Shown one piece after another: positions 2,659 through 31,639 of a stretch of DNA of 32,000 nt. Position 1 is the stretch's first letter; the number at the start of each line of letters is the position of its first letter. Under the pieces are notes generated by a model. It ran no database searches and was not told where the DNA came from. It saw only the letters and a list, made by a program, of their open reading frames with translations. A program made the position numbers and the translations under genes. Source of the stretch: a virus; the IMG/VR virus record IMGVR_UViG_3300017971_000311, positions 27,967-59,966 of that record; one strand, 5' to 3'.

Positions 2659-3573
2659 ATGCTCGATCGTATTAGAAAAGCCTTTCGCGAGAACGTCTAC
2701 ACGCATCTTATCAACGACGATCGTCTACCCAACAAAAAGAAGGGGTCGGTGTGGCGCCACGGACGTTTGTACATTCGCCCTCGCAAAGAAAAGAGGCTGA
2801 AGCTCACGAACAGATCTCCAGAGGCACATGTCAGCTGGGCGCTTCTTGGGGCTGCTCATCATTTGTGCTTCCACATTCGCCTGGAGTCTCCAGGTGGAGA
2901 AGATGACATCAGCATTTCCGGTGGCATCCCGTACCTCTTCTACTTAGGAGGAAGTGTAGAGGGGCTAGTACCGCAGGAGGTCAAGCAGTGGATCGGTCTC
3001 TACAATCCAGGCGCCAAGACAGGGGACGTCTATATTGACAGGTCCATTGGCTGGTCGATTCACGACGGCACTGCTTGGATTTCCATCTGGGAAAACGATA
3101 ACGGGTGGAGCAGTAGAGACCCGAAGTGGTGGAAGTTCAACTTTTCCATCAACCCTCTAGATCTTCTGGGCCGCAAGAAGTACACTAGCGAGGTCGTCGA
3201 GGAGAAGACGGTGGCCATCCCGATGCCTGAGGGAAGCTACCCAGCGAAGATTAAGTTGTGTGCAGATACATGGGCACGTCCGCGCTGGCCTCGTTGGCCG
3301 TTCTCGGAAACCATTTTGCGCATGCACGCTGATATGGTCAAACCCATCCCCACTCCCGGTAAAGGCGAAAATTCTTGGGATTGTGGTGACGATGCGGTGT
3401 GCGGTTTAACAGCTCCCGCGCGCACAATGGAAGAGGCGGTAGGTAAGCTAGTAGCTACTGCTTTGCAGGACAGGCAGCGTTACGGTGGAAGCCACGAGTT
3501 CACACCGCGGGATCCACCTCCTGATGAAGCCACAGAAAATGCGCCGGTAGAGATGAAGAACGCCGATGCCTAA
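2659..3573 (+). CDS. Hypothetical protein (304 aa)
   Basis: Long ORF with a GAGGTG RBS. Trp-rich. No family recognised. Confidence 0.7.
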   Translation: MLDRIRKAFRENVYTHLINDDRLPNKKKGSVWRHGRLYIRPRKEKRLKLTNRSPEAHVSWALLGAAHHLCFHIRLESPGGEDDISISGGIPYLFYLGGSVEGLVPQEVKQWIGLYNPGAKTGDVYIDRSIGWSIHDGTAWISIWENDNGWSSRDPKWWKFNFSINPLDLLGRKKYTSEVVEEKTVAIPMPEGSYPAKIKLCADTWARPRWPRWPFSETILRMHADMVKPIPTPGKGENSWDCGDDAVCGLTAPARTMEEAVGKLVATALQDRQRYGGSHEFTPRDPPPDEATENAPVEMKNADA

Positions 3574-6410: not shown

Positions 6411-6476
6411 CTTCTTGTAGCTCAGCTGGTAGAGCATGGGACTCCGAGGTCGTGGGTTCGAGTCCCACCTGGCCCG
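6411..6476 (+). pseudogene. Truncated tRNA-like element (canonical D and T arms, no acceptor pairing, 3-bp mini anticodon hairpin)
   Basis: TA-GCTC-AGCTGGTA-GAGC and GTGGG-TTCGAGT-CCCAC are canonical. Only 15 nt lie between them where about 22 are expected. The 5' strand CTTCTTG cannot pair with CTGGCCC. Confidence 0.4.
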
Positions 6477-21589: not shown

Positions 21590-21678
21590 TAGTTTGTCGG
21601 CAGCGTTCGAGCCGGTGAAACTGGCGAATGCTTAGTTTTGGAGAATAGCTTGACGTTCAGTTCGGGCATCTATAAAGC

Positions 21679-21840
21679 CTCGACAGCCGTCTGCATCAGA
21701 CACGACGACCGCGTTTACCAGATTTCGCCACCCGTACGCAAAGTAATGGGGCTGGGAGGCGCATCGCGTCTCCACTGTTTAAGCGCATCGCGTCTAAACG
21801 CCCCGATTGTACGGGGAAGGGTTCGAACCTCCAAGTCGAG
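21679..21840 (-). ncRNA. Candidate circularly permuted class-II-like tRNA gene (3' part, 70-nt spacer, 5' part)
   Basis: Minus strand reads CTCGAC-TT-GGAGG-TTCGAAC-CCTTC-CCCGTAC-A, then a 70-nt spacer, then GTACGGG-TG-GCG-AAATCTGGTAAA-CGC. A bulged 7-bp hairpin with loop TCTGATG follows, then CT-GTCGAG. The acceptor pairs 7/7 and the outer helix GTCGAG/CTCGAC pairs 6/6. Confidence 0.35.
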
Positions 21841-29293: not shown

Positions 29294-29434
29294 GCATGAG
29301 TGGCGAAACGGAGAAGCATTGCTTCTATGAAACGCTTTATCGGTAATTGAGACGTGGCCGATACATACCGACAAGGCTGCGGTGCAAACATCGCGGCGCT
29401 TCCGGATGCAGGGTTCGAGTCCCTGCCTCGTGCA
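29294..29434 (+). ncRNA. Giant tRNA-like module A (141 nt)
   Basis: Acceptor GCATGAG/CTCGTGC (7 bp) followed by TG. T arm GCAGGG-TTCGAGT-CCCTGC with a 6-bp stem. Internal 9-bp hairpin GCTGCGGTG-CAAA-CATCGCGGC and hairpin AGAAG-CATTG-CTTCT. Confidence 0.4.
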
Positions 29435-29464
29435 AAATCCTGGGCATGATAGCAAAAACTGCCC

Positions 29465-29611
29465 GTGCGTGTGATTGCGGAAAATTGGTCCGCTACAGCA
29501 AGTTGCAGCCACCCTTAAAAGTGCTGCACAGACACGGCTTGCTACACCAGTACAGCTTGCGTAGTGCGCTACGTATTGTTGTGCGCAGGGTTCGAGTCCC
29601 TGCCGCGCGCA
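29465..29611 (+). ncRNA. Giant tRNA-Leu(UAA)-like module B (147 nt)
   Basis: Acceptor GTGCGTG/CGCGCGC. Leu-type D arm GCGG-AAAATTGGTC-CGC. A bulged 7-bp helix is capped by a loop containing CTTAAAA. UNCG-capped hairpin CGTAG-TGCG-CTACG. T arm GCAGGG-TTCGAGT-CCCTGC. Confidence 0.45.
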
Positions 29612-29671
29612 ACACTGTAAAGTACGAGGCCTGGTTGCGCACCCGATTAAGTTCAGGGGAAAGTCCAGGGT

Positions 29672-29817
29672 GCATGCGTGGTGGAAGAGGTAGACACTAA
29701 CGAGTAAATCGTTGAGGGTAACACCAAAGGGATGAGGTTCGAGCCGGTGGCGTAACCGCTGCCGGTAAATAAGCCCCAGAGTCGAACCATGCAGGGTGCA
29801 AATCCCTGCCGCATGCA
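29672..29817 (+). ncRNA. Giant tRNA-like module C (146 nt)
   Basis: Acceptor GCATGCG/CGCATGC plus TG. Leu-type D arm GTGG-AAGAGGTAGA-CAC. Hairpin AACG-AGTAAAT-CGTT. A 76-nt insert carries the 9-bp hairpin CCGGTGGCG-TAAC-CGCTGCCGG. T arm GCAGGG-TGCAAAT-CCCTGC with G at position 55. Confidence 0.4.
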
Positions 29818-29948
29818 GATTGGTTGCAACGCAGCGCGGGACTTCCCTGCTCTCGCGTGCTGTGACTTGCAGCTAACTGGGAGTGGATGCGTCTTTCAGG
29901 GAGGCTTTACTCACTCACAGCGACCTGGGATTGTCGTAAAAAGCACCA

Positions 29949-30070
29949 GCGTGGATGGCGGAAAAGGTAGACGCTACTGAATGGGTATGTCGAACTGCTG
30001 GCAAAGCCGATAAATTTCACCCATGAATGTGCAGGACGACACTGCAGGGTGCAAATCCCTGCTCCACGCA
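29949..30070 (+). ncRNA. Giant tRNA-like module D (122 nt)
   Basis: Acceptor GCGTGGA/TCCACGC plus TG. Leu-type D arm GCGG-AAAAGGTAGA-CGC. A 44-nt irregular hairpin is closed by ATGGGT/ACCCAT. T arm GCAGGG-TGCAAAT-CCCTGC. Confidence 0.4.
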
Positions 30071-30230
30071 AAGGTAGCACGACTATTTTTCAGTTGTGGT
30101 CGTAGCAGTAGCCAAACGAAAACGCCCGGTAACTGAACGCGAGTGAGAGTAGCCTTGGCCCAGCTCCTCCGGCGATCGGGATTAAATATGGGCCACTTTT
30201 AATCATGGTTCACATTTTTCTGAGCAACGG

Positions 30231-30257
30231 TCTCCTGTTTTTAAATATTACAGGAGG
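30231..30257 (+). promoter_or_regulatory. Hairpin sequestering the SD of ORF 30263
   Basis: TCTCCTGT (30231-38) pairs with ACAGGAGG (30250-57): 8 bp including one G-U, with a T/A-rich 11-nt loop. The 3' arm is the RBS. Confidence 0.35.
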
Positions 30258-30262
30258 TCAGT

Positions 30263-30981: not shown

Positions 30982-31230
30982 GCGGTTTGGGCGACGCAGG
31001 CCGCGAAACAACGTAGCCAAGAGGGCAGTTCATATTGAACATCCATGGTGCGCTTGAAGCTGGGTTGTTGGGACAGTCGCTGCGTTGGGCGAAGCGCGCA
31101 TTAAACTGCAAGCCCCGGTTTATGGGTGTTGGCCTCAGATTCCCGGCAGGACGTTACAAGCTGCCGAAACGGGCAAGTGAGCTCTTGCATTTATTGGTGG
31201 TCCCAGCTAGGATGTAATGAGCTCGCGTCT

Positions 31231-31303
31231 TGGGGCGTCGACAAGTGGAAAGTCACCGGCTTTTGATGCCGGCATTTCGTAGGTTCGAATCCTACCGCCC
31301 CAG
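31231..31303 (+). tRNA. tRNA-Gln(TTG)
   Basis: Acceptor TGGGGCG/CGCCCCA. Anticodon stem CCGGC/GCCGG with loop TTTTGAT. T arm GTAGG-TTCGAAT-CCTAC. Confidence 0.85.
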
Positions 31304-31518
31304 TAGGTGAGGGATGCAGCATTACCTCACTGTGGCAGTGTTTGAGCTAAGCGATCGTAGGTTTAAGCATTGCTGGTTGCTGTGCACAGGACCCCGCTGT
31401 GGTTAAGAAAGTGTGGGCGTTTCCGGGTACCGTGATACTCGGCGCGGACTAGTGCCTGATAACCGTGATGTAAATGCAGGCACACGGAGCTCACGGTTAG
31501 CCGCTGTGGGTTCCAAAT
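31304..31518 (+). ncRNA. Structured inter-tRNA RNA with pseudoknot-type pairing
   Basis: GTGCCTG pairs with CAGGCAC (7 bp), interleaved with TAACCGTGA pairing with TCACGGTTA (9 bp). Direct repeats CCGCTGTGG x2. The ORFs here overlap the tRNA and look spurious. Confidence 0.35.
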
Positions 31519-31594
31519 GGGCGATTAGCGAAGTGGCTTTACGCGGCGGTCCTACAAACCGCGACCTACGCTGGTTCGAACCCAGCATCGCCCA
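31519..31594 (+). tRNA. tRNA-Val(TAC)-like with C33 and a 7-nt variable loop
   Basis: Acceptor GGGCGAT/ATCGCCC. D stem GCG/CGC. Anticodon stem GCGGT/ACCGC with loop CCTACAA, where position 33 is C rather than U. T arm GCTGG-TTCGAAC-CCAGC. Confidence 0.65.
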
Positions 31595-31639
31595 TCGAAC
31601 TCCTGAGTATAGTTACCTGTAGGTAATGATCAGGAGTTC

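Follow-up and report, generated by a model that had tools for sequence, protein, structure and literature searches.

The 'species 1' and 'species 2' RNAs of phage T4 (rnaC and rnaD) are stable molecules of about 120-140 nucleotides (nt), encoded within the phage transfer RNA (tRNA) cluster and co-oriented with the tRNAs, and rnaC carries a canonical T arm and an acceptor-like stem at its end. Among tRNAs, tRNA-Sec and the allo-tRNAs have acceptor/T branches other than 7/5 (PMC7609411). We describe here an array of four tandem tRNA-like units (A to D) that invites comparison with these RNAs and with bacterial tRNA-Leu. It lies in a 32,000-nt stretch of viral DNA (IMG/VR virus record IMGVR_UViG_3300017971_000311, positions 27,967 to 59,966), which was analysed as a whole and is called the window hereafter, position 1 being its first letter. 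Units C and D very probably belong to a real, conserved, non-decoding RNA family derived from tRNA-Leu.

As in tRNA-Sec, the acceptor/T stack of the window units counted 13 base pairs (bp) and not the canonical 12. The units differed from tRNA-Sec and the allo-tRNAs in dividing this stack as 7/6 (not 8/5, 9/4, 8/4 or 9/3), in having no UCA or other anticodon, and in a D stem of 3-4 bp, that of tRNA-Sec being long. The T4 RNAs had neither a Leu-type D arm nor a 6-bp T stem nor the G at T-loop position 55 (G55), and homology to them was rejected, rnaC scoring 10.9 bits (E 0.19) with R1, the earlier of two family models, below T4 tRNA-Leu at 20.6 bits. With bacterial tRNA-Leu the family shared U8-G9, a D arm of the form GCGG-AAUAGGUAGA-CGC, G7-C66 and the five-helix layout, to which all four window units added G1-C72 and A73, as in true tRNA-Leu. 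Unlike tRNA-Leu, the family lacked an anticodon arm (5-bp stem, 7-nt loop) and had a T stem of 6 instead of 5 bp, a UGCAAAU instead of a UUCRANU T loop, a free discriminator and almost no encoded CCA.

Four tandem units and the RNA family around them

A T-arm repeat, GCAGGG-T(TCGAG/GCAAA)T-CCCTGC, followed by a 7-nt acceptor 3' strand, was found in four direct copies (at 29408, 29585, 29791 and 30044), one in each of the following units:

29294-29434, + strand: unit A, 141 nt, divergent family member (repeat, minimum free energy (MFE) fold, structural scanner, family models)
29467-29611, + strand: unit B, 145 nt, marginal paralogue (repeat, MFE fold, structural scanner, family models)
29672-29817, + strand: unit C, 146 nt, bona fide family member (repeat, MFE fold, box-defined stem, structural scanner, model R2)
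29949-30070, + strand: unit D, 122 nt, bona fide family member (repeat, MFE fold, box-defined stem, structural scanner, model R2)

Folded alone, every unit displayed a 7-bp acceptor-like stem, a D arm and a 6-bp T arm in its MFE structure (z-scores of -2.8 to -4.0), with about 60-85 nt between the D and T arms. A structural scanner, set to require a 6-bp T stem with a 7-mer resembling a T loop, complete pairing of a 7-bp closing stem, and a D stem, returned precisely these four units from the window and none from 50 shuffles. An earlier, sequence-only reading of the window had held the array to be too regular for chance, and the repeat, the folds and the scan agree with it. The 6-bp T stem and 13-bp stack that it had proposed were recovered by the repeat finder and the folds in all four units, and the two units to which it had ascribed G55 are C and D. 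Spacers between the units showed no notable structure (fold z of 0 to -1.4).

Unit A is closed by 29294-29300 pairing with 29427-29433, followed by UG (29301-29302), with A73 at 29434. D arms had been recognized in the other three units only; unit A also has one, its D stem (GCG...CGC, 29303-29305 with 29333-29335) enclosing a loop that contains an inserted hairpin. The core (about 29336-29405) leads to a T arm at 29408-29426 with a 6-bp stem and the canonical loop TTCGAGT, and the whole unit folded at z -3.66. A hairpin within the D loop was also observed in the viral-contig members L006, L008, L013 and L085.

Unit B is best read from 29467 and not, as previously, from 29465, a register that is also possible owing to a GC-alternating stem. 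Its acceptor stem (29467-29473 with 29604-29610, A73 at 29611) contains two G.U pairs, and the acceptor-then-TG pattern claimed for all units held for A, C and D, the linker of B being AUU (29474-29476). Likewise, the Leu-type D arm claimed for B, C and D was found in C and D, whereas the D arm of B (29477-29493) is a 4-bp GCGG/CCGC stem with the loop AAAAUUGGU. The CUUAAAA of unit B, which had been read as a Leu-UAA anticodon loop, is indeed present (29514-29520); it stands in an 8-nt loop capping a long bulged helix of about 15 bp. A UGCG-capped hairpin accompanies it, and the T arm (29585-29603) is exactly that of unit A.

In unit C the acceptor stem (29672-29678 with 29810-29816, A73 at 29817) is followed by UG (29679-29680) and a Leu-type D arm (29681-29697, GUGG-AAGAGGUAGA-CAC). 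The core (29698-29788) holds a hairpin of 9-10 bp enclosed by a 7-bp long-range helix (GGUUCGA/UCGAACC), and an AU junction (29789-29790) precedes the T arm (29791-29809) with its UGCAAAU loop (G55). Unit D repeats this plan with an acceptor stem at 29949-29955 and 30063-30069, UG at 29956-29957, A73 at 30070, a Leu-type D arm at 29958-29974 (GCGG-AAAAGGUAGA-CGC), a core at 29975-30042 and a T arm at 30044-30062 with the loop UGCAAAU (G55), CU replacing the AU junction.

Scored with R2, a covariance model built without any window sequence, unit D reached 73.7 bits (E 5e-19), unit C 65.6 bits (E 1e-16) and unit A 25.8 bits (E 2e-5; 39.3 bits with R1). For comparison, genuine tRNAs of the window obtained 9-12 bits. 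R1 gave 66.8, 70.6 and 72.1 bits to copies outside its training set from phage Grass, phage LP-101 and a Brochothrix phage. The closing stem, UG and a D arm of the form GYGG-AAnAGGUAGA-CRC occurred together in C and D, with the D-loop hairpin in A, and not in B. The family T arm was complete in C, had the CU junction in D, and in A and B combined the 6-bp stem with a canonical UUCGAGU loop. Judging by these features, C and D are members of the family and A is a divergent member (D-loop insertion, canonical T loop); B appears to be a marginal paralogue, which its position within the array and a T arm identical to that of unit A tie to the others.

Exact copies of the 19-nt T arm shared by C and D (GCAGGGTGCAAATCCCTGC) were present in at least 118 IMG/VR contigs, in 113 of which the 7 nt past the T arm pair with 7 nt located 77-234 nt upstream. 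Among the matches listed, 79 of 90 unique units continued from this 5' strand into UG and a near-invariant D arm, GCGGAAUAGGUAGACGC. The architecture of most matches was a variable 7-bp stem, UG, the D arm, a core of 35-180 nt, AU, and a 6-bp T stem with a UGCAAAU loop (G55), for a unit length of 88 to about 230 nt (median 127 nt). The constant part, or chassis, would correspond to the 'upper half' and elbow of tRNA-Leu (closing stem, U8-G9, D arm, AU junction, 6-bp T stem and UGCAAAU loop), and a hypervariable core of 35-180 nt takes the place of the anticodon and variable arms. At 88 nt, the smallest member (L092) matches a class II tRNA in size and in its five-helix layout, a 4-bp stem with a CAA triloop standing in place of the anticodon arm. 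About 25 nt were inserted inside the T loop of L213, on a contig of an Acidobacteriota metagenome-assembled genome (MAG).

Pairing of the closing stem was conserved across the family. With acceptor strands set only by their distance from the conserved boxes and without selection for complementarity, 96% of positions were paired, against 56% with shuffled partners (maximum 60%), and all four Watson-Crick pair types were seen at acceptor positions 1-6. In a MAFFT alignment of 47 sequences (A1), scored over the three scaffold helices, 98.3% of cells were paired, compared with 78% after shuffling and 35-44% with the partner slid, and double-changed cells numbered 154 versus 35 in shuffles. Compensatory changes were found in 7/7 acceptor pairs, in three pairs of the T stem and in one of the D stem, so that the acceptor, D and T helices proposed from the sequence alone all covary in homologues. 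T-stem covariation was clearest in prophage copies (GCAGGG/CCCUGC, GUAAGG/CCUUAC, GUGUGG/CCACAC, GUCAGG/CCUGAC and GCUAGG/CCUAGC), which invariably kept 6 bp and the UGCAAAU loop. G.U pairs outnumbered A.C mismatches (19 versus 5), consistent with an RNA transcribed from this strand. The discriminator was free (A 34, C 30, U 18, G 10), and CCA was encoded in only 3 of 92 units.

Rfam 15 has no entry for the family. No description of it was found in the full-text literature searched, whose coverage is incomplete, so that an earlier description is possible.

Probable tRNA-Leu origin and absence of decoding

The 20-nt D-arm string of the family, searched in bacterial genomes, was that of genuine tRNA-Leu genes, from which we infer that the phage family derives from tRNA-Leu. 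The 105 genes examined were 77-87 nt long, had UAA, GAG, CAG or CAA anticodons, always A73, and a 5-bp T stem with a loop of the UUCRANU type. None of them displayed UGCAAAU (G55) or a 6-bp T stem.

Decoding is excluded as far as computation shows. Of the three options listed by the sequence-only reading, that of tRNA mimics or decoys is the one supported, the units deriving from tRNA-Leu without decoding. Of the cloverleaf, the 7-bp acceptor stem, the D arm and the T arm are present, with covariation in all three helices. The canonical 5-bp T stem with a U54-U55-C56 loop is not, the stem having 6 bp in all four units and C and D having G55. The MFE folds of the window units showed no 5-bp anticodon stem bearing a 7-nt loop at the usual distance from the elbow. 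None of the four units was called as a tRNA, either by ARAGORN in its runs with and without introns or by Rfam at its gathering threshold and at E<=10, and no Rfam tRNA match fell on a unit at 40 related viral loci. ARAGORN in intron mode (introns of 0-200 nt, default threshold) detected none of the 90 family members and none of the four window units, and at a relaxed threshold the anticodons assigned to family members were scattered at random.

Already described families did not account for the units either: Rfam gave no match to tRNA, tRNA-Sec, GOLLD, ROOL or other large ornate RNAs of 500-800 nt at the window units. Neither Rfam nor the ARAGORN search for transfer-messenger RNA (tmRNA), which has tRNA-Ala-like ends, a tag reading frame and pseudoknots, found a tmRNA in the window. 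Rfam scans of units in three cultured-phage loci and in the 40 viral loci were equally without match.

A group I intron core, of about 200 nt or more and inserted in the UAA anticodon loop, was considered for the cores and rejected, as Rfam gave no Intron_gpI match and the window cores span only about 60-85 nt. An interrupted tRNA-Leu was observed elsewhere: on another Acidobacteriota MAG contig (L229) the 5' half of a genuine tRNA-Leu(UAA) is broken in its anticodon loop, right after CUUA, with a group I intron as the presumed cause, and it looks unlike the window units.

Setting of the units in phage genomes

Cultured carriers included phages of Listeria, Lactobacillus, Enterococcus, Bacillus, Brochothrix and Paenibacillus, nearly all with the element unannotated, and copies were also found in prophages. 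In four independent temperate phages or prophages of Firmicutes (LP-101, Brochothrix BtpYZU01, a Heyndrickxia prophage and a Pediococcus prophage) the unit was located between an ArpU/RinA-type late activator gene and the HNH/terS-terL-portal genes. In the larger virulent phages (L. plantarum phage ATCC 8014-B2, Bacillus phage Grass and the phage of the window) it was located inside tRNA clusters.

The unit of Listeria phage LP-101 (L173) maps to about 42785-42915 of KJ094023. In L173, the leader at 2812-3237, running from the RinA-like activator to the HNH/terminase genes, held three RNA elements in a row, as found with Rfam and the family model:

2812-2944: rli62
2995-3125: tRNA-like unit
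3187-3237: mcrA RNA

The tRNA cluster of Bacillus phage Grass (L298) contains an unannotated gap of 840 nt (1650-2492), with the family unit at 2001-2120 (32370-32489 of KF669652). At about 2405-2484 the gap also holds a second, different tRNA-like element, likewise unannotated and about 80 nt long, in which a GGGGUUCGAUUCCCC T arm is combined with a 7-bp closing stem.

Across 99 viral loci the unit was nearly always single-copy, which makes the four-unit tandem array unusual, and a tRNA lay within 1 kilobase (kb) at only 15 of these loci. Open reading frames (ORFs) adjoining units were co-oriented in about 77% of cases, and terminator-like sites were rare, with 3 of 84 units having one downstream. 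In IMG/VR, phrog_36/248 was the most frequent upstream neighbour (about 9 loci), and no single neighbouring gene family was dominant. When neighbours were clustered and 300 flanking ORFs were scanned with PHROG, no universal neighbour emerged that could be a conserved partner protein. A twister-sister ribozyme (L003, 2892-2961, - strand) and a DUF3800-VII RNA (L105, 126-215, + strand) were seen near family units, at a few kb or about 120 nt, and no consistent association of either with units appeared across 40 loci scanned.

The window itself is phage-like, with a major head protein and a tail protein (PHROG matches), and also encodes a radical SAM enzyme, a metallophosphoesterase and a DUF7873 protein. 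Its DNA was recovered 100% identical from two independent sequencing runs. Canonical tRNAs numbered 18 by ARAGORN and 20 by Rfam, with a single tRNA-Leu (AAG) in the ARAGORN set. The array occupies an ORF-poor 1.6 kb (28670-30262) between a tRNA-Gln(CUG) and an ORF of 119 amino acids (from 30263), and is bracketed by tRNAs on the same strand, which suggests co-transcription within a tRNA island:

28597-28669, + strand: canonical tRNA-Gln(CUG), upstream of the array (ARAGORN, Rfam)
31230-31304, same strand as the array: tRNA-Gln(UUG), past the array (ARAGORN, Rfam)
31518-31596, same strand as the array: tRNA-Val, past the array (ARAGORN, Rfam)

No convincing + strand promoter or terminator was found between the array and the flanking tRNAs. 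The 620 nt between tRNA-Gln(CUG) and unit A (28670-29293) are GC-rich and ORF-poor and may hold eroded units; they include another CTTAAAA (near 28854) and short repeats common to the units, GAGGGTAAAAC and TGCTAGACCCTGCTC, the latter like the 3' half of the T arm. Folding of these 624 nt did not differ significantly from shuffles (z -1.8). A single larger RNA over 28670-30262 was rejected on this value and on those of the spacers, and the earlier suggestion that the units are modules of a larger ornate RNA found no support, the family also being normally single-copy.

Other tRNA-like traces were noted away from the array. On the - strand, 21659-21737 carries a Leu-like D arm (GGGUGGCGAAAUCUGGUAAACGC) and a weakly paired closing stem and scored 16-17 bits with both family models; it was called by neither ARAGORN nor Rfam, folded no better than shuffles (z -0.3), and may be a decayed tRNA-Leu or a unit remnant, near a - strand tRNA-Leu and tRNA-Ser at 23175-23348. 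On the + strand, 6417-6469 (32.4 bits, model positions 7-64 only) and 10614-10684 (29.5 bits) matched the Rfam tRNA model just over the gathering score without an ARAGORN call, and are possibly truncated or aberrant tRNAs adjoining canonical ones.

The phage is an orphan, the proteins neighbouring the array having no relatives in phage, viral-contig, metagenome or protein collections. Only the DUF7873 protein (22339-23073, - strand; Pfam E 8e-97) had many, on 53 viral contigs, several of them 130-390 kb long. No tRNA-like unit was found at these 53 distant loci, apparent units in L126 and L252 being rejected as false positives of a loose regular expression.

Possible roles and comparison with known systems

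The reading that we favour, tentatively and with less than even confidence, is that the constant tRNA-Leu chassis gives maturation and stability and the variable core gives specificity. The array would be transcribed on the + strand along with the flanking tRNAs, and each unit, whose scaffold helices are borne out by covariation, would fold into a tRNA-like L. The chassis may then be a substrate of host RNase P, RNase Z and CCA addition, yielding discrete stable RNAs of 120-150 nt; CCA addition is invoked because no CCA is encoded. The scarcity of encoded CCA and of terminator-like sites, the co-orientation of adjoining ORFs and the excess of G.U over A.C would fit processing out of longer transcripts. 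The missing anticodon arm, the 13-bp stack and G55 might keep the RNA off EF-Tu and the ribosome. The proposed effects of the stack and of G55 rest on the precedent of tRNA-Sec (PMC7609411) and on an analogy with those Staphylococcus tRNA-Gly species that are used only for cell-wall synthesis and have GUGC instead of GTΨC. The core would finally act as a putative effector module, a step partly supported by the cores described below, and the four-unit array would deliver four different modules.

Evidence that the cores are functional modules is mixed. Cores between the D and T arms were essentially unalignable, 96 of them falling into 82 similarity clusters. Six distinct members (L012, L022, L083, L107, L299 and L301) form a core class in which three helices covary, two of them crossing as a pseudoknot, around an invariant GAUCGC loop, and L025 and L027 differ by a single compensatory A-U to G-C change within a core helix. 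A further class (L005, L101, L010 and L013) was observed to contain a nested T-arm-like hairpin (GGGUUCGAUKCCC) with a conserved NUAAAAAC loop; it resembles a second, miniature tRNA-like domain with helices that look compensatory by eye, and is anecdotal, with three distinct sequences only and no further members in a targeted scan.

Several results weigh against the favoured reading. Core covariation comes from the six-member class only, whose structure was drawn by eye from the same six sequences that gave 97% of cells paired and 14 both-side-changed pairs versus 6.6 in shuffles. Family cores folded only slightly better than shuffles (mean z -0.39, p=3e-4; 6% below -2), and the folds of the window's own cores were unremarkable (z +0.5 to -1.6). 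Complementarity of cores to their own genome was not in excess (longest match 9.15 nt, compared with 9.21 nt at other loci, p=0.34), and that of the window cores to their own locus was at or under shuffled expectation; an antisense regulator of the own genome was rejected on these grounds. The closing helix often runs past 7 bp, positions -1:73 being paired in 62% of cases (37% shuffled) and -2:74 in 59% (42% shuffled). Real pre-tRNAs are not known to pair beyond the 7-bp acceptor stem, which leaves the true RNA ends uncertain, and cutting by RNase P may be displaced or impeded by this extended helix in combination with a T stem of 6 bp. In the window, unit B scored 12.8 bits with R2 (E about 0.1, not significant; 29.5 bits with R1). 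Moreover, a search of viral and metagenome contigs and of a protein database with the neighbouring 119-, 136- and 519-amino-acid proteins produced no orthologous array on which the four cores could be tested, and only two contigs identical to the window.

The units might also constitute a natural 'tRNA scaffold' display, in which a translation-inert chassis, matured and stabilised by the tRNA machinery of the host, presents fast-evolving structured modules that would counter host factors or defence systems in the manner of aptamers or decoys, with the conserved D- and T-arm boxes as recombination handles for module swapping and the four-unit array as a multivalent form. This is possible and, on balance, doubtful. 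Swapping of core cassettes among near-identical phages could not be substantiated, the sole pair of loci sharing long flanks having 96% identical cores.

It is rather unlikely, in our estimate, that the active part is instead the tRNA-Leu-like elbow and acceptor/T stack, the core being tolerated filler, so that the unit would act as a decoy or sponge for a host factor that reads shape (LeuRS, RNase P, a modification enzyme or a defence nuclease cutting the tRNA body). The D and T loops are nearly invariant while all else varies, and the cores are weakly structured overall and without targets in their own genome. A four-fold tandem array would suit a dosage effect, and G1-C72 with A73 could make the four window units ligands of LeuRS; the E. 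coli enzyme is not known to read the anticodon. However, the discriminator is not conserved in the family, which makes uniform recognition by LeuRS unlikely, and large insertions are tolerated within the D loop and, in L213, the T loop. Short cores would be expected of a decoy, yet the median unit measures 127 nt, and the covarying pseudoknot and invariant loop of one core class are not expected of filler. A cis-acting leader or punctuation element that remains in a long phage transcript, as an RNase P/Z cleavage site parting transcript segments, a 5'-terminal stabiliser of the messenger RNA downstream or, in front of an operon, a put-like antitermination RNA, is unlikely. The four temperate loci and the phrog_36/248 neighbourhood point in its direction, as do the position of units at module boundaries, co-oriented and almost never with a terminator of their own, the closing helix of often 8-9 bp, and the weak Rfam likeness to mascRNA, a tRNA-like 3'-end processing signal. 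On the other hand, context is heterogeneous, with no single class of downstream gene, and the units of the window, Grass and ATCC 8014-B2 stand among tRNAs and do not head a protein operon. A pure processing signal would leave the near-invariant Leu-type D loop, G55 and the pseudoknotted core unexplained, and four consecutive punctuation marks would have no obvious use.

That the units are decaying, functionless pseudo-tRNA genes, born of duplication in a tRNA island, is very unlikely: the divergence of units A and B and the degenerate tRNA-like remnants elsewhere in the window (at 21659-21737, 6417-6469 and 10614-10684) would fit, but pseudogenes would lose pairing, whereas the scaffold covaries and phages and prophages of great diversity keep the same architecture, with compensatory changes, which contradicts such an origin for C and D. 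Least probable of all are decoding tRNA-Leu genes with novel introns or expansion segments, an option also listed by the sequence-only reading; the segments would be removed or tolerated, unit B being tRNA-Leu(UAA). The Leu-type D arm, A73, G1-C72, the CUUAAAA loop of unit B and the presence of a single tRNA-Leu (AAG) in the tRNA set of the window speak for them. Against them stand the intron-mode and relaxed ARAGORN results, the place of the UAA of unit B in an 8-nt loop ending a helix of about 15 bp, the lack of an Rfam group I intron, and G55 and the 6-bp T stem, each seen in 0 of 105 genuine tRNA-Leu genes. The 88-nt L092, of normal tRNA-Leu length, is too small for an intron and has a CAA-triloop 4-bp stem.

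If the favoured reading is true, a common structured RNA gene of phages is unannotated, including in model phages of Listeria, Bacillus, Lactobacillus and Enterococcus. The family would be a testable one to set beside the T4 species 1 and 2 RNAs (of which the T4 record says "small, stable RNA"), would carry the question of phage tRNA-like genes beyond codon supply, and could reveal new RNA-based phage-host interactions. Its covariance model could be used to annotate these genes and would stop pipelines from mislabelling or missing them.

Beyond tRNAs and the T4 RNAs, the best similarity of the units in Rfam was to mascRNA (18-21 bits, below the gathering level), and no known RNA, YrlA included, matched at the gathering level. 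P1/P7 C4 antisense RNA is a small phage RNA matured by RNase P in which variable segments set specificity; it differs from the units in showing no sequence or structural similarity to them, and their cores have no excess complementarity to the own genome. mascRNA/MALAT1, the gammaherpesvirus TMER units, the Y RNA YrlA and engineered tRNA scaffolds resemble the units in joining a non-decoding, tRNA-shaped module to another RNA function, and probably exploit RNase P/Z and CCA addition. The units differ from these in carrying their cargo at the place of the anticodon and variable arms, in having bacterial-phage hosts, and in their tRNA-Leu-like chassis. A constant chassis with exchangeable cores would be a natural counterpart of the tRNA scaffold engineered for recombinant RNAs.

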